Source: Bacteroidia bacterium
GTDB lineage: Bacteria; Bacteroidota; Bacteroidia; SpSt-205
Reading direction: 5' to 3'
DNA length: 64,000 bases
NCBI GenBank assembly: GCA_025057135.1
Contig: JANWXY010000057.1
Span: forward strand, 15,136-79,135
Position numbers and translations under genes: made by a program
Part shown: one piece after another, positions 3,578-32,141 of the stretch
Numbering within the stretch: position 1 is the first letter of the stretch
Layout: every line of letters starts with the position of its first letter
Notes under the pieces: generated by a model
Told to the model about the DNA's origin: nothing
Seen by the model: the letters and a program-made list of their open reading frames with translations, nothing else
The model's database searches: none

Positions 3578-4534
3578 TCAGGCCGAACGCTTCACAAACT
3601 GCTCTCTCTTATATAGCAAGCGATCCAAGGTGTGCCGGGAGATAATATACACAAAATACGGGGAGTGCCAGAGCCGCACATAATAGTGCAGGGCACTGCT
3701 CGAATGCGGATAGACGCTCCAGTGGTACTTTTTCCCTTTCCATAAAAACAGCTGAACCTCAGCTATGGTTGAAAGCCCCACCAGAGAGTCCGCCGAAGTC
3801 AGCTCATCCGCATAAAAAGGCCCTGAATATGCCATGAGATACTCAGCTACCGCGAAGGAATCTACCGGCTCTTCTGTGGCTAAACGCCAAGGAGCATTGG
3901 GCTGAGGGCGCTCTAAACGCCAGCTCTTCTCTGGCTCGCCTGTATAATCCACCTGTATAGCGTAGAGGTCTGCGACTCGGGCATCAAACATTTGATTGGA
4001 CTGCCAAACGCCAAGGTCAGGATAATACCGAGAGGTCAAATAGCCTTCCAAGCCTGGCAGAAAGACTTCATAGGGTTGGTCACTCCCAGGACGCAGCATG
4101 TAAGTAGCAAATTGGTCAGGCGTCGGTCCCCCTACGTAAAACTCCTCTTCTCTGCCATCGCGAAAACGCAGCGTAACCTCTATACGATGCTCTCGCAAAA
4201 AGGAAAGCACATTTTTCAGAGCATTCTGAGGCACAGGAGCTCGGGGCGTCTGCGCAACAAGTGTGCGCAGAAGGGTCTGTAATGGCTGCTCAAAGACAGG
4301 CAAAGTATCCCCGATGAGCCATCCTTTTGGGGTTCTGCGCAAATCTATGCGGCGAAAAATCGTGTCTGCGTGCTTCTCTACCAGGTGTATCTCAACAATG
4401 GCGCCTGTATCCGGAAAAGCGAATCGTTTTTCAGCTTCGGCTCTCCGGGCGGCTATCTGCCCTCCCCATATTACTACGCCGATAGCTACAAGCAGTACGA
4501 CTAATAGTGCAATAGATGCCCAAGAGACCTTCAT
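3578..4534 (-). CDS. membrane-anchored hypothetical protein (possibly a DUF4340-like partner of GldG)
   Basis: 318 aa with an N-terminal TM helix 'IALLVVLLVAIGVVIW'. Its 4-nt overlap with the upstream GldG-like gene suggests co-translation. No catalytic motif was recognised. Confidence 0.35.
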   Translation of the reverse strand: MKVSWASIALLVVLLVAIGVVIWGGQIAARRAEAEKRFAFPDTGAIVEIHLVEKHADTIFRRIDLRRTPKGWLIGDTLPVFEQPLQTLLRTLVAQTPRAPVPQNALKNVLSFLREHRIEVTLRFRDGREEEFYVGGPTPDQFATYMLRPGSDQPYEVFLPGLEGYLTSRYYPDLGVWQSNQMFDARVADLYAIQVDYTGEPEKSWRLERPQPNAPWRLATEEPVDSFAVAEYLMAYSGPFYADELTSADSLVGLSTIAEVQLFLWKGKKYHWSVYPHSSSALHYYVRLWHSPYFVYIISRHTLDRLLYKREQFVKRSA

Positions 4535-6222
4535 ACCAGCGATCGCCTGTATTTATGACGCCGCCAAAGGTATAGCCCCACACCAAAAACCACCATCACA
4601 ACTACGGGTAATCCCAAGTTAAACGCCTGTATAAGCAGGGGATTACGGCGCACAATATCCGGATTCAGTCGGCGCAGCTGCACACTCCTACTACGCACTT
4701 GAGTGAGGGTCGTTTCTCCTGTGAGGTAATCTATGCAGTTCAGTAGGAAGGTCAAATTGTCCAACGGAGTGTAGTCCGCAGCGCGCCCCTGCACCTCCGA
4801 GGGCAAAGCAAACTCTCCGTCAGTAATAAAAATGGCTTTGCCCGGAAGGCCAGATTCAGGTAGAAACCTCGCTGTGGGGGGATTGGGAGCATATGCATCC
4901 GTAGGTGGTTCTCTGTCTACGAATACCGAAGTAAATCGCCCTTCGCTCAGCACCGCCATTGGTCGGAAGCCCTTTCCTTTGAAGGTCTCAGGATTGGGAG
5001 GATTCTTGACTGTGAGGTTTATATCTATCATTTGCGTGCCCTTGACGGACCGGCTTATGGGAGAGCTAAGCGCTAAAATCGTGTGCTTAATCCCTGGGCG
5101 GGAAATAGTATCTACGCTCCCTGCGTATCGGTATAAAACAGCATCCACCGTGCGGGTAACGGGATGAGCAGGAAAGATATACACGATCGGATAATATAGC
5201 CATTTTTCTGCTCCCCAGACCGGACCGTCATAGTACCCCTTTATGAGCTCAATATATCCACAGGAGAAGTCTTGAACAAGGTCATATCCTGGCCGCCATC
5301 CCCAGCGGAAAAATAGATCATCTAAGTTTAGCTCACGCAGAAGTACCAGCGCACTCCCCTCCGATAAATTGATACGATGATGGTCTAAAAGCCAGAGCAA
5401 ACGCCCGCCCCGCAGAAGATACTGCTCCAACTCATACTTTTCCCGCTCGGTAAAGGCACTATCCGGTCCAATCACTACTATCGCCGCAAAGCCATCCCCT
5501 GAAAGTTTTTTCTGGAGGGTCTCAGGTAGGTAGGCTTTGGCAGGCGCGAGGGCTTGCCCTTCTCGAACGCGCACAGGCACCAAACGGTAGAACTTTCCCA
5601 ATTCAGCCTCTAACTGAGGCATCTGCGACAGGCTGTATTCCCCATGACCGCTCAGAAAGCCCAAAATTGGCTTACTACCGTGCGTAGCGATTTGGCGGAG
5701 GGCCGCAGCGATTTTGTATTCTACCTCCTGCTCAGCTTCTAATAGGTCTATTTCCCCAGTAGGACGAAAATGGCCTTTGACCAAATCCACCCAGATATCC
5801 TGCTGTCCCGCATGAATCGTCGCCACAGGATACATGTACTGACGGCGCGTCTCAGTCTGAGAAACCCGTACATTGATAGGTATCGGCTGGATGCCGTGCT
5901 GCTTGAAGAGGCGCAGAACCTGTGGATTTTTAGAGGGGTTGACAAATGTATAGTTGAAAGGCTTAGGAGCCACAGCGCGCATCTCTGCTAGCATAGTCTC
6001 CACAGCCCGTTTGTATCTTTGGATAGGATACGGAAAATCCCCCTCTAAATACACCGTCACATAGGTGCTCTGAGGCATTCGCTTGAGGATTTCCCGCGTC
6101 CCTTCGGAGAGGGTGTAGCGCTTTTCCTCCGTCAAATCTACTCGCAGAAAGTATCTCCCCCCCAGAAGGTATAGTAGTATTAGCGCGGCGACTAAAATGA
6201 GTAGCTGCAGGAGATTTTTCAT
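4531..6222 (-). CDS. gldG: GldG-like ABC-transporter auxiliary component (gliding-motility-associated)
   Basis: 563 aa with an N-terminal TM helix (LLILVAALILLYLL) and a C-terminal TM helix (LPVVVMVVFGVGLYLW). This size and topology are typical of GldG, and it overlaps the start of the upstream ABC-2 permease. Confidence 0.55.
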   Translation of the reverse strand: MKNLLQLLILVAALILLYLLGGRYFLRVDLTEEKRYTLSEGTREILKRMPQSTYVTVYLEGDFPYPIQRYKRAVETMLAEMRAVAPKPFNYTFVNPSKNPQVLRLFKQHGIQPIPINVRVSQTETRRQYMYPVATIHAGQQDIWVDLVKGHFRPTGEIDLLEAEQEVEYKIAAALRQIATHGSKPILGFLSGHGEYSLSQMPQLEAELGKFYRLVPVRVREGQALAPAKAYLPETLQKKLSGDGFAAIVVIGPDSAFTEREKYELEQYLLRGGRLLWLLDHHRINLSEGSALVLLRELNLDDLFFRWGWRPGYDLVQDFSCGYIELIKGYYDGPVWGAEKWLYYPIVYIFPAHPVTRTVDAVLYRYAGSVDTISRPGIKHTILALSSPISRSVKGTQMIDINLTVKNPPNPETFKGKGFRPMAVLSEGRFTSVFVDREPPTDAYAPNPPTARFLPESGLPGKAIFITDGEFALPSEVQGRAADYTPLDNLTFLLNCIDYLTGETTLTQVRSRSVQLRRLNPDIVRRNPLLIQAFNLGLPVVVMVVFGVGLYLWRRHKYRRSLV

Positions 6223-28385: not shown

Positions 28386-28456
28386 GGCGACGTGGCCGAG
28401 CGGTTAGGCACGGGTCTGCAAAACCCTCTACGGGAGTTCGAATCTCCCCGTCGCCT
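28386..28456 (+). tRNA. tRNA-Cys (anticodon GCA)
   Basis: 7-bp acceptor stem ggcgacg/cgtcgcc. Anticodon loop 'cuGCAaa'. T-arm gggag-TTCGAAT-ctccc. CCA is not encoded. Confidence 0.8.
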
Positions 28457-29197
28457 CTAACTCTGCGGTAGATACCTGGCTGTCAGGCTTGCCCAAGTTT
28501 GAGCCTCCTCGGGCCTTTGAAGTAAAGCCCTACCCACCACCAAGAGAGCGGGATATAGAAGATTGGTAGAAGGGAGCTGAGCTCCTTGTGCGCCTAAACC
28601 CGGCATAAGAAGCCAATCCGTAGGGCGATTTTGTCTCAGCTCCAAAAGTTCGGCATCCGTATGATGAGCAGCCCATACCCACCCAATATTCGCAGGTAGC
28701 GTTTTGGGCTCCTCTAATAAAATCTGTCGCCAAATAACCCTCTGCCAAGCCGGCGCCTCTGTCGTCCGCAATAGAATGAAAGCCCACTTTCCCTGATAAG
28801 ACCAAAAAGGCTCTAAGGCATGCCAGCCCATATAAGGGTGGAGGGTTACAGCATCAAACCCCAAGTCTTCATACAGAGCCTGGGCGTAGTAGCGATTCGT
28901 GTGGGCGATGTCACCGCGTTTCGCATCGGCTATACTTAGGGTGTCGGTGGGCAGTAAGGACCTGAGCCGTTTCATCAGTGTCCATCCGGCTGCTCCCCAT
29001 CGTTCGTAAAAGGCCGTATTGAGCTTGTAAGCTATCGCATAGGGAGCCGTGTATTCAATGATTGAATGCAGCCGAGCCTCTGCGCGCTCTGGGGATGAGC
29101 CATCCTCATACCCAAGAGCCGCTTCTGAAGGGTCTAAAGCCACACACAGCAGGCTATTCTTGCCCCGAGCAGCCTGTTCTAACTCCTGAGGAGTCAC
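28457..29197 (-). CDS. pyrF: orotidine-5'-phosphate decarboxylase, type 2
   Basis: 246 aa. 'LLCVALDP' and 'IADAKRGDIAHTN' match the conserved type-2 OMPdecase motifs (D-x-K-R-x-D-I-x-x-T). Overall it is collinear with actinobacterial-type PyrF. Confidence 0.75.
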   Translation of the reverse strand: MTPQELEQAARGKNSLLCVALDPSEAALGYEDGSSPERAEARLHSIIEYTAPYAIAYKLNTAFYERWGAAGWTLMKRLRSLLPTDTLSIADAKRGDIAHTNRYYAQALYEDLGFDAVTLHPYMGWHALEPFWSYQGKWAFILLRTTEAPAWQRVIWRQILLEEPKTLPANIGWVWAAHHTDAELLELRQNRPTDWLLMPGLGAQGAQLPSTNLLYPALLVVGRALLQRPEEAQTWASLTARYLPQS

Positions 29198-29823: not shown

Positions 29824-29868
29824 AGGTCAAAGGTAGCGAGTATTTGATTTGGATATGTGCAGAAATCG

Positions 29869-29876
29869 TAGCTTTG
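29869..29876 (+). promoter_or_regulatory. Bacteroidota-type -7 element (TAgcTTTG) with upstream TTTG; putative tRNA-Thr promoter
   Basis: TAGCTTTG lies 10 nt upstream of the tRNA-Thr 5' end. TTTG at 29843-29846 and 29848-29851 is at about 17-18 nt spacing. Confidence 0.45.
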
Positions 29877-29886
29877 CAGTGGCTAA

Positions 29887-29958
29887 GCCATCGTAGCTCA
29901 GTGGCAGAGCACTTCCTTGGTAAGGAAGAGGTCGCCGGTTCAATCCCGGCCGATGGCT
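29887..29958 (+). tRNA. tRNA-Thr (anticodon GGT)
   Basis: Acceptor gccatcg/cgatggc. D-arm 'agctcagtggcagagc'. Anticodon stem cttcc/ggaag with loop 'uuGGUaa'. T-arm 'ccggttcaatcccgg'. Confidence 0.88.
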
Positions 29959-29960
29959 CT

Positions 29961-30560
29961 ATGCGGGTGTTGCCTGTAGTTTTCTGGTTTGCGTTAGGCA
30001 TACTGAATGCACAAGCAAGAGTCGGTATAGTATTAGCCCCCCAGGCAACTACCGCAAAAGGTCAAATGGATAAAGACTACTTTGTGTTAGGCTTTGCAGG
30101 CGGGCTATCTGGCGAGGTTTTATTTACCGAACGCGCAGCAGTAGGCATAGACTTACTCGGTTCTTTCGCTGGCTGGCGAGAGGAAGAAAGAAGTGGCAAC
30201 AGTTTCATCAAATCAGAGCATCGCCTCACGACCTTACAGGTACCTGTCTATGTGCGCGCCCAGTGGTTAGAGTTAGGAGAAGAAGGGGCTGGGTTGAGCG
30301 CAGTACTGGGCGTTCAGTCTGACGTGTTATTGGGTGCTCGGAGCCGATTGGAAGGGGCAAGGTTTAGCAAAAATGTGTCTGAATATAGTCGGTTCGCAGG
30401 CTCTCTCCTCGGTGGAATAGGCTTCTCATATGAGGGCGACTATGCCTTTTCGGTAGATGTACGAAGTGCTTATAGCTTTATCAATCTCAAGCGAAACAAA
30501 GGCGGCCGAATAAATCCTGCATGGTTCATGCTGCGCGTAGCTTTCTACTTCGGGCAGTGA
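29961..30560 (+). CDS. outer-membrane beta-barrel protein (porin/OmpW/PorT-like family)
   Basis: About 200 aa from Met 29961 with signal peptide 'MRVLPVVFWFALGILNAQA'. It has alternating hydrophobic beta-strand patterning and ends in aromatic-rich 'RVAFYFGQ'. The ORF-track start at 29844 runs across the tRNA and is rejected. Confidence 0.55.
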   Translation: MRVLPVVFWFALGILNAQARVGIVLAPQATTAKGQMDKDYFVLGFAGGLSGEVLFTERAAVGIDLLGSFAGWREEERSGNSFIKSEHRLTTLQVPVYVRAQWLELGEEGAGLSAVLGVQSDVLLGARSRLEGARFSKNVSEYSRFAGSLLGGIGFSYEGDYAFSVDVRSAYSFINLKRNKGGRINPAWFMLRVAFYFGQ

Positions 30561-30589
30561 CGGAGCATTTGGATGTTTGATCTTTTTTG

Positions 30590-30597
30590 TACCTTTG
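30590..30597 (+). promoter_or_regulatory. Bacteroidota-type -7 element (TAccTTTG) with -33 TTTG 18 nt upstream; putative promoter of the tuf-secE-nusG-rpl-rpo cluster
   Basis: TACCTTTG at 30590-30597 and TTTG at 30568-30571. It lies about 75 nt upstream of the tuf ATG. Confidence 0.45.
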
Positions 30598-30608
30598 CAC
30601 CGCTTTCA

Positions 30609-30667
30609 GCTGTCACAGCTCGGGGAGCTACCTTTATAGGATAGGCCGGTTCGACTCCGGAGACAGC
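30609..30667 (+). other. degenerate tRNA-like element (T-arm + acceptor stem intact, D/anticodon arms collapsed) in tuf leader; probable tRNA remnant
   Basis: 6-bp acceptor-like pairing gctgtc/gacagc. Perfect T-arm ccgg-TTCGACT-ccgg. No complete anticodon arm, about 59 nt in total. Confidence 0.3.
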
Positions 30668-30672
30668 ACTAT

Positions 30673-31860
30673 ATGGCAAAAGAGGTTTTCGTCCGCGATA
30701 AAGAACATGTCAACGTTGGCACCATAGGCCACGTAGACCACGGCAAGACCACGCTTACGGCGGCTATTACGCGAGTACTTTCTAGAAAAGGGCTCGCTCA
30801 AGAGCGCAGTTACGACTCTATAGACAACGCGCCAGAGGAGCGAGAACGTGGGATTACCATCAATACTGCACATGTAGAATACAATAGTGAAAAACGGCAT
30901 TACGCCCATATTGACTGCCCTGGCCATGCAGATTATGTGAAAAACATGGTTACGGGAGCTGCTCAGATGGACGCAGCCATCCTCGTGGTAGCTGCTACTG
31001 ATGGTCCCAAAGCTCAAACTCGGGAGCACATTCTCTTGGCTCGGCAAGTCGGCGTTCCATACATTGTTGTCTTTCTCAACAAAGTAGACATGGTAGATGA
31101 CGAAGAGCTCTTGGAGCTTGCCGAAATGGAAATCCGCGATCTCCTAAACTTTTACGGTTATCCCGGAGATACGACGCCTATCATCCGAGGTTCTGCCCTT
31201 GGTGCTCTCAATGGAGACCCTAAATGGGAGCAGAAAGTTTTAGAGCTCATAGAAACATTAGACTCATACATACCTACCCCCCAGCGCATTGTTGATAAGC
31301 CATTTTTGATGCCTGTGGAGGATGTCGTCTCTATTACAGGACGGGGTACGGTAGTTACCGGCCGAATAGAGCGTGGTCGCATCAAACTGAATGAGCCAGT
31401 AGATATCGTGGGGCTCAGAGAAGAGAAAATGACCTCAGTCGTCACAGGGATAGAAATGTTCCGTAAGCTCCTGGATGAGGGACAAGCAGGTGATAATGTG
31501 GGCTTACTCCTACGAGGTATTGATAAGGATCAGGTTCGCAGGGGGATGGTAGTATGTGCTCCAAATAGCATCACCCCTCACAAACATTTCAAAGCCGAAG
31601 TCTATATCCTCACAAAAGAGGAGGGGGGACGACACACGCCATTTACGAATAACTATCGGCCTCAATTCTTCTTCCGTACAGCCGATATAACTGGCACTAT
31701 AAAGCTGCCTGCCGACGTTCCGATGGTTATGCCTGGCGACAATGTGAGCATAGAGGTAGAGCTAATCTACCCCATAGCTATGGAAAAAGGGCTCCGCTTC
31801 GCCATCCGAGAAGGTGGGCGTACCATCGGCGCCGGTCAAGTAACTGAAATTTTAGACTAA
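30673..31860 (+). CDS. tuf: elongation factor Tu
   Basis: 395 aa: '[33 protein letters not shown]...[20 protein letters not shown]...NKVD'. Canonical EF-Tu. Confidence 0.97.
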
Positions 31861-31871
31861 AACTTTCTCCT

Positions 31872-31944
<73 letters not shown>

Positions 31945-31946
31945 CG

Positions 31947-32141
31947 ATGCGTGAAAAGCTGACTAAGCTGTGGAAGGATTACTCTCTGGAGTGGCGCACT
32001 AAAGTAGAGTGGCCAGCCCTCCCACAGCTCTTCAGCACGACGGTAGCGGTGTTGGTGGGTAGCCTACTGCTTGCTATCGTGATAGGGCTGATAGATTTGA
32101 TCTTTAGTACTGTGATGCGTGGATTATACTCTATTTTTTGA
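31947..32141 (+). CDS. secE: preprotein translocase subunit SecE
   Basis: 64 aa with a single C-terminal TM helix 'VAVLVGSLLLAIVIGLIDLIF'. Its position after tRNA-Trp and before nusG is conserved. Confidence 0.8.
   Translation: MREKLTKLWKDYSLEWRTKVEWPALPQLFSTTVAVLVGSLLLAIVIGLIDLIFSTVMRGLYSIF

Follow-up and report, generated by a model that had tools for sequence, protein, structure and literature searches.

Directly upstream of tuf, the gene for elongation factor Tu (EF-Tu), the tufB-type operon carries a tRNA-Thr(GGT) gene that is co-transcribed with it from a tRNA-type promoter (PMC6134099). In plant mitochondria, tRNA-like structures known as t-elements have been proposed to set the 5′ or 3′ ends of mRNAs by serving as signals for endonucleolytic cleavage by RNase P and/or RNase Z (PMC1920247). 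Neighbouring RNA ends are also made by excision of a tRNA or tRNA-like structure in mitochondrial tRNA punctuation and in mascRNA/MALAT1, and an acceptor/T-arm mimic with a T-loop motif is present in the tRNA-like domain of tmRNA and in the Y RNA YrlA. Animal mitochondrial mRNAs that arise by tRNA punctuation are leaderless. The present analysis concerns a 60-nt tRNA-like element located between the tuf promoter and the tuf start codon in a 64,000-nt stretch of contig JANWXY010000057.1 (the window, to whose plus strand all coordinates refer unless stated otherwise), which comes from the metagenome-assembled genome (MAG) of an uncultured Bacteroidia bacterium. The element is proposed to act in cis as a processing signal for RNase P and the tRNA 3′ endonuclease, which would yield a near-leaderless tuf mRNA; we assign this reading a probability of about 0.6.

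The locus has the layout of a tRNA-tuf operon of the tufB type, in that a thrT gene or a derivative of it lies between the promoter and tuf on the same strand. A thrT-type sequence directly before tuf is shared with the thrU-tyrU-glyT-thrT-tufB operon of Escherichia coli and Salmonella and the Thr-Tyr-Gly-Thr(GGT)-tuf arrays of other bacteria, an arrangement also seen in the outgroup loci L122-L125 and in a Sulfurimonas MAG (L116), and with the related locus L126, which has the order promoter-thrT-tuf. In contrast to the tufB-type operon, the tuf-proximal "tRNA" is here non-decoding, its anticodon arm and D loop having collapsed, while an intact thrT of its own is found further upstream, and 3-4 nt precede the AUG instead of tens of nucleotides with a ribosome-binding region. 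The plant t-elements are the closest described systems in function, as they are likewise non-decoding, tRNA-derived and cloverleaf-like; this structure and the adjacency to an open reading frame are seen here. Whereas t-elements are organellar, serve many genes and have mapped cleavages, the present element is bacterial, precedes the single gene tuf, has its own promoter and shows clade-wide covariation. Excision of the kind seen in mitochondrial punctuation and mascRNA/MALAT1 is proposed here for another domain of life, with other enzymes, and for only three junctions in one operon region. Unlike tmRNA and YrlA, which are free-standing genes, it forms an mRNA leader, and the Rfam models of the two are not matched by it. 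Literature searches turned up no earlier description of a tRNA-like tuf leader in bacteria.

The element in the tuf leader

The minimum free energy structure obtained for the window element (30609-30668) with unconstrained RNAfold was a mini-cloverleaf of −22.1 kcal/mol, and the same structure was supported by covariation and by a family covariance model, R1. The acceptor stem contains 6 bp (GCTGTC at 30609-30614 with GACAGC at 30662-30667) and encloses a D-like hairpin (AGCTC-GGG-GAGCT, 30617-30629), a remnant of the anticodon arm with 3 bp and a 4-nt loop (CCT-TTAT-AGG, 30631-30640) and a T arm (GCCGG-TTCGACT-CCGGA, 30645-30661). A discriminator-like A at 30668 is followed by the linker CTAT (30669-30672), with C at position 74, and by tuf itself (30673-31860), whose 395-aa product matches Pfam GTP_EFTU and domains D2 and D3. 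The tuf promoter consists of a −33 TTTG (30568-30571), a T-rich spacer and the −7 box TACCTTTG (30590-30597), and it is kept in all loci of the family. The predicted 5′ leader of the transcript, GCUUUCA (30602-30608), would start at the invariant G 30602. An earlier note on this DNA, made from the letters only, had pointed out a tRNA-Thr, a porin-like gene and what looked like a decayed tRNA in the tuf leader; every feature that it described was recovered at the same coordinates by inspection of the sequence and with ARAGORN, Rfam, Pfam and RNAfold, and its placement of the element in the tuf leader, behind a real and conserved promoter, was upheld.

The element shares some features with canonical tRNAs and lacks others. 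An acceptor stem of 6-7 bp, a T arm with the T-loop motif (TTCRANY in tRNAs) and an acceptor/T stack of 10-12 bp are present, whereas the anticodon loop, expected to have 7 nt, is reduced to 4 nt (TTAT) in the window, ranges over 3-12 nt in the other versions and shows no sequence conservation. Neither a tRNA nor a tmRNA was called by ARAGORN for the window element. Rfam searches at E<=10, which covered 5 kb of the locus, a 91-nt stretch and seven related loci, returned no match over the element to the tRNA model RF00005 (family threshold 29 bits) and none to tmRNA, YrlA or any other family, apart from a weak antisense match to "Plastid-ycf2", a model that also matches the antisense strand of real tRNAs. 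Weak YrlA matches (about 21 bits, against a gathering score of 69) overlapped real tRNAs only. The family has no match in Rfam 15.

A functional but unusual decoding tRNA, comparable to the truncated tRNAs of mitochondria, might be suspected from the ARAGORN calls that were obtained for the longer, long-armed versions of the L050 subclade. However, these calls were assigned to ???, Arg, Tyr, Thr or Leu among near-identical relatives, with "anticodons" as different as tccg, cc, tct, gta, cgt and aag, and across all versions what remains of the anticodon arm forms a hairpin of 3-13 bp, whose loop has 3-12 nt and no conserved anticodon. Given this variable remnant and these inconsistent anticodons, the element cannot decode. 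The loop sizes and the absent Rfam match, which extends to the 91-nt stretch, likewise contradict a decoding tRNA, and we give that reading next to no credence.

Conservation and covariation across 24 versions

The family was gathered through homologues of the porin-like protein encoded upstream of the tuf promoter, a pattern scan of one genome per species, a metagenome scan and EF-Tu look-ups. Six relatives with 61-82% identity in the porin-like protein shared the gene order and carried a recognisable element, and the pattern scan, the output of which was otherwise mostly real tRNAs or chance matches, identified the element in seven further MAGs labelled "Bacteroidia/Bacteroidota bacterium". 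Additional versions came from the metagenome scan, and L128-L131 from the EF-Tu look-ups. As a result, 24 distinct element sequences were obtained. In all of them a conserved TTTG...TAnnTTTG promoter precedes the element, and the tuf ATG follows it after a linker of 3-4 nt (CTAT, CTGT, CTT or CCAT; 24 of 24 versions). When folded alone and without constraints, each of them gave a cloverleaf-type junction, with predicted stabilities of −22 to −35 kcal/mol.

Covariation was assessed on a MAFFT alignment (A3) that begins at acceptor nucleotide 1; an earlier alignment that included the variable 5′ leader had misregistered the L050 group. In this alignment 91% of cells were paired, against 30-49% with the partners slid, and the proportion was 97% in the acceptor stem and 90% in the T stem. 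Double compensatory changes were found in three of the six acceptor pairs (3-70, C-G/U-A; 4-69, A-U/G-C; 6-67, U-A/C-G) and in three of the five T-stem pairs. The covariation score was 0.401, compared with 0.236 ± 0.018 for shuffled alignments, none of which reached the observed value (0/500), and 0.06-0.15 for slid partners. RNAalifold, run independently, returned a four-arm cloverleaf in which 11 of 18 pairs showed compensatory changes, with the middle stem affected as well as the acceptor and T stems. With model R1, only one copy was detected in the whole 64 kb (65.9 bits). The comparative data place the structure of the element beyond chance.

The rate of change was then set against that of neighbouring sequences. 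The four-fold degenerate sites of tuf have reached saturation, with an identity of 0.25-0.39 that holds even for the closest relative of the window, whereas the element of that relative is 90% identical to the window version and those of the others 52-86%; for the real tRNA-Thr(GGT), identity across the clade is 92-100%. Because the element has kept 52-90% identity next to saturated four-fold sites, its history is not one of neutral decay. The earlier note had taken it for a decayed tRNA, which implies a relic, and the loss of the anticodon loop and D loop, together with the lack of any call by tRNA finders, is what would be expected of a neutral pseudogene lying by chance between the promoter and tuf. 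This view was not borne out, as the element occupies the same place in all 24 versions, within a clade in which identity falls to 58% for NusG and 54% for L10, a divergence at which a neutral relic could no longer be recognised, and every version folds by way of compensatory changes. Retention at one position, covariation and slower-than-neutral change contradict the neutral pseudogene, which we regard as highly improbable. The comparison of the versions indicates instead that the element is under purifying selection with structure-preserving covariation.

Invariant or nearly invariant positions comprise G1-C72, C2-G71, the T-loop motif TTCNANT (T54 T55 C56. A58. T60) and the guanines of the D-loop region (window 30622-30625, invariant at 30623 and 30625), and in the T stem G-C is invariant at pairs 52-62 and 53-61. 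The acceptor/T-arm helix and the elbow of T loop and D loop are what RNase P, RNase Z and the CCA-adding enzyme read, and the anticodon arm is dispensable for these enzymes. The conservation pattern therefore appears to fit the needs of RNase P and RNase Z rather than those of decoding. The nucleotide after the discriminator is a C in the element, as it is in every real tRNA of these genomes. More generally, the element and the tRNA genes seen (Cys, Thr, Trp and Pro) encode C74 in all related loci (window positions 28457, 29959, 30669 and 31945), and a full CCA is usually absent; a few relatives encode a CCA that overlaps the next ATG.

Descent from tRNA-Thr(GGT)

After the element itself, R1 ranks the genome's own tRNA-Thr(GGT) second, at 46 bits, compared with 20.7 bits for tRNA-Trp, and the order is the same in other loci. 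This tRNA-Thr(GGT) is intact (29887-29958; ARAGORN; Rfam tRNA 71.1 bits), with the discriminator T at 29958, C74 at 29959 and no encoded CCA. Upstream of it, the sequence contains a −7 box, TAGCTTTG (29869-29876), and TTTG −33 motifs (29843-29851), a region whose role as a promoter is suggested by the Bacteroidota consensus TAnnTTTG (PMC6847099). Within the window, the promoter-tRNA-Thr unit can be aligned collinearly with the promoter-element unit, and both of them with L126, and the element of L012 retains the CTTCC/GGAAG anticodon stem of tRNA-Thr.

The clade to which these loci belong comprises about 100 EF-Tu clusters at 88-96% identity, with the N-terminus M[AS]KEVFVRD[KR]EH, and the next level of EF-Tu identity is 81% or less. 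Two loci that fall within the clade by EF-Tu identity, L126 and L127, have the same promoter, followed by an intact tRNA-Thr(GGT) with the acceptor GCCATTG/CAATGGC, a 15-nt A/T-rich spacer and tuf; the tuf promoter of the family is homologous to the promoter before the intact tRNA-Thr of L126. In a five-protein neighbour-joining tree (1,135 columns), the element-bearing loci were monophyletic with a bootstrap of 100/100, and L126 was their sister. The outgroups at the lower EF-Tu level (L122-L125) contain a Lys-Leu-Thr(TGT)-Tyr-Gly-Thr(GGT) array, which is separated from tuf by an A/T-rich spacer of 43-50 nt; no element was found in them, and their tRNA-Trp lies 24-39 nt before secE.

Since the slot is filled in the sister lineage by an intact tRNA-Thr(GGT), with the same promoter in front of it, these comparisons indicate that the element is a thrT derivative without decoding features. 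The origin from a tRNA that the earlier note had proposed is thus upheld, and the search for an intact tRNA at the same position in relatives, which it had suggested, was positive. The Rfam tRNA and tmRNA models, which it had also named for a check, gave no match. The simplest history would be a duplication of the promoter-thrT unit before tuf, after which the distal copy kept decoding and the tuf-proximal copy became a mimic; since the mimic has been retained, a single event would suffice. In the tuf-proximal copy, the anticodon loop and the greater part of the D loop would have disappeared. The parts that end-processing enzymes read would have been retained, namely the T loop, a few guanines of the D loop and the helix of acceptor (with G1-C72 and C2-G71) stacked on T arm.

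The earlier note had viewed the element as the remainder of a Thr/Tyr/Gly/Thr array disrupted by the porin-like gene. That gene (29961-30560) encodes a 199-aa outer-membrane beta-barrel protein (OMP_b-brl_2 / "PorT family"; Pfam E=5.6e-11) with homologues at 61-100% identity, one database entry being 100% identical, and it is confined to a single subclade (the window, L001-L006, L023 and L049). No copy of it is present in L012, L051, L098/L115, L070 and the L050 type, all of which have the element, so that the element is not a consequence of its insertion. A by-product of this insertion is thereby ruled out, and the distribution of the gene indicates that its insertion is separate from, and later than, the origin of the element. 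The slot between tRNA-Thr and the tuf promoter accepts differing inserts by lineage: two adjacent open reading frames resembling a split DNA methyltransferase (motif DPDYNVG) occupy it in L070 (oriented 4535-5620), a tRNA-Pro(CGG) is found in the L050 type (L050/L106-L119), and it is empty in L012, L051 and L098. As tRNA-Thr has its own −7 box, the porin-like gene seems to be expressed as a tRNA-mRNA co-transcript. In L118 (117-186), both strands of a long hairpin upstream of tRNA-Thr weakly matched several miRNA-precursor models, at about 27 bits and far below threshold; the hairpin is probably just a strong inverted repeat.

The retained thrT features also bear on a possible role of the excised RNA. 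G1-C72 and C2-G71 are identity elements for threonyl-tRNA synthetase (ThrRS) in E. coli, and the T arm is the surface contacted by EF-Tu. With both pairs retained and the T arm intact, a CCA-tailed mini-tRNA could be a functional product in trans that binds EF-Tu, ThrRS or a tRNA-modifying or surveillance factor, and it might couple EF-Tu synthesis to the tRNA pool or provide feedback. Such an RNA is predicted to be produced 1:1 with the tuf transcript from a tRNA-type promoter, and tRNA-like RNAs such as eukaryotic mascRNA and bacterial YrlA can be stable products. Nevertheless, the discriminator can be A, G or C, where the real tRNA-Thr has U, and drift is unrestrained at acceptor pairs 3-7, which is unlike the constraint of a sequence-reading partner. 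ThrRS would find no anticodon, the strict 3-4 nt coupling to the ATG is not needed by an RNA acting in trans, and R1 detected no second free-standing copy in the 64 kb. A trans-acting product is therefore considered improbable.

Promoter geometry, tRNA-mRNA junctions and proposed processing

In Flavobacterium johnsoniae, transcription starts 4-5 nt after the −7 box (PMC6847099). By analogy, and with invariant C1..C3 C4 G5 after the tuf −7 box in the family alignment, the tuf transcript probably starts at G 30602, which would leave a 7-nt leader before the element, typical of pre-tRNA. The distance from the −7 box to nucleotide 1 of the element is 9-12 nt; for tRNA-Cys and tRNA-Thr it is 7-10 nt. 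In the window, the −7 box of tRNA-Cys, TATATTTG, lies just 7 nt upstream of its first base. This tRNA-Cys (28386-28457) is convergent with pyrF, the gene for OMP decarboxylase (28457-29197, minus strand), and the tRNA 3′ end and the pyrF stop codon share base 28457.

The 3′ side of the element resembles the junctions that follow two real tRNAs of the same region. The ATG of the porin-like gene lies 2-4 nt after the tRNA-Thr discriminator in the window subclade (L001-L006) and 6-13 nt after it in L023 and L049; in the window it starts 2 nt after tRNA-Thr position 74 (29958-29963). Downstream of tuf, tRNA-Trp(CCA) (31872-31944; ARAGORN; Rfam 70.6 bits; discriminator G 31944, C74 31945) is followed by secE (31947-32141; Pfam SecE) and then by nusG, rplK, rplA, rplJ and rplL. 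The secE ATG lies 2 nt after the tRNA-Trp discriminator in the window, and in 21 of 21 clade loci checked it either follows the discriminator by 1-3 nt or overlaps with an encoded CCA (GCCATG). The loci with this junction are listed as L001-L005, L012, L023, L049, L051, L070, L098, L106-L119 and L126. Excision is obligatory for real tRNAs, so the tRNA-Thr/porin-like and tRNA-Trp/secE junctions must give rise to mRNAs with leaders of 1-4 nt, and the element-tuf junction has the same geometry.

The tRNA-Trp gene of the window begins 11 nt past the tuf stop codon, and as no promoter box is present within those 11 nt, tRNA-Trp and secE are probably transcribed with tuf. In L126, a −7 box (TACCTTTG) does lie between the tuf stop codon and tRNA-Trp (4190-4212), so the structure of the tRNA-Trp/secE transcription unit varies within the clade. 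Real tRNAs were also found to abut the tuf ATG in unrelated genomes: a tRNA-Thr(GGT) at 3 nt in the Sulfurimonas MAG (L065/L116, 4567-4643), a tRNA-Gly with CCA at 5 nt in L112 (about 1374-1456, contig WNFH01191421), and a tRNA-Tyr with CCA at 5 nt, or 8 nt from the discriminator, in an uncultured proteobacterium (L047). The junction type is therefore not unique, and the new part is the dedicated non-decoding mimic.

In the proposed route, transcription would begin some 7 nt before the element, whose 5′ side would be cut by RNase P at 30608/30609, and the tRNA 3′ endonuclease would cut after the discriminator at 30668. Where tRNA genes do not encode CCA, the tRNA 3′ endonuclease is RNase Z. 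The products would be a mini-tRNA of ~60 nt and a tuf mRNA with a 5′-monophosphate and its AUG 3-4 nt from the end. That RNase P/Z might process the element had been raised in the earlier note, and it is the mechanism favoured here. We infer the transcription start, both cleavages and the translation of this short-leader mRNA from the anatomy, conservation, covariation and origin of the element, the promoter geometry and the matching tRNA-to-ATG junctions. A scan for sigma-70 promoters and terminators, uninformative for this phylum, predicted no terminator on the plus strand in the interval from the porin-like gene to the tuf promoter. With no terminator predicted there, read-through transcripts from the porin-like gene would also be split at the element, and the same cuts would part that mRNA from tuf, as in tRNA punctuation.

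The element might instead stay on the tuf mRNA as a stable 5′-terminal structure, possibly trimmed by RNase P only, that protects the message from 5′-end-dependent decay or tunes initiation. Its predicted stability (−22 to −35 kcal/mol) at the very 5′ end of the transcript would suit such a role, as would the abundance and long life expected of tuf mRNA; conservation and covariation accord equally well with any structural function, and the imperfect 10-11 bp acceptor/T stack of the window element could disfavour RNase Z. However, a generic hairpin has no need of an invariant TTCNANT, of G1-C72/C2-G71, of D-loop guanines or of C74, and the fixed 3-4 nt linker resembles the junctions after real tRNAs, which must be cut. 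Initiation in Bacteroidota needs unstructured A-rich leaders, and in F. johnsoniae the translation of EF-Tu relies on upstream adenines in such a leader (PMC6847099). Under this rule, initiation should be inhibited by a helix that reaches to 5 nt before the AUG, and, given also the 43-50 nt A/T-rich tuf leaders of the outgroups, a cloverleaf ending at −5 is expected to block initiation unless removed. We consider retention of the structure on the mRNA unlikely.

Several observations weigh against excision of the element as proposed. The folding z-score of the window element against shuffled sequences is modest (−1.88), so that the single window sequence is not decisive, and the aligned sequences are related and represent a handful of lineages, so that the counts overstate the independent covariation events. 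The acceptor and T stems stack over 10-11 bp in the window element, compared with 12 bp in a tRNA, and about half of the versions have a G-A or G-G mismatch at position 49-65; the short stack and this mismatch could weaken recognition by RNase P or RNase Z. Furthermore, 87% of F. johnsoniae mRNAs have leaders longer than 10 nt (PMC6847099), and efficient translation of the most abundant protein from a leader of 3-4 nt is therefore not the norm of the phylum.

The finding is confined in scope to a single uncultured clade, the whole of which has swapped the tuf leader for a folded tRNA mimic with its end 5 nt before the AUG. In a bacterial cell usually no protein is more abundant than EF-Tu, and initiation in Bacteroidota works without Shine-Dalgarno pairing. 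The element offers a simple system for defining the minimal requirements of RNase P and RNase Z in vivo and for studying Bacteroidota initiation on mRNAs with a 5′-monophosphate and a 3-4 nt leader. It is a long shot that the clade uses tRNA punctuation routinely and that excision of the mini-tRNA yields, besides the near-leaderless tuf mRNA, a stable CCA-tailed mimic of ~60 nt that is sensed by EF-Tu or by the tRNA-processing or charging machinery; such a counterpart of mascRNA with feedback might couple EF-Tu synthesis to tRNA-processing capacity. If the mimic is indeed cut out, the locus would represent a bacterial form of tRNA-like "punctuation" that makes near-leaderless mRNAs for essential genes, and it would show that a duplicated tRNA gene can persist for its processing signals alone.

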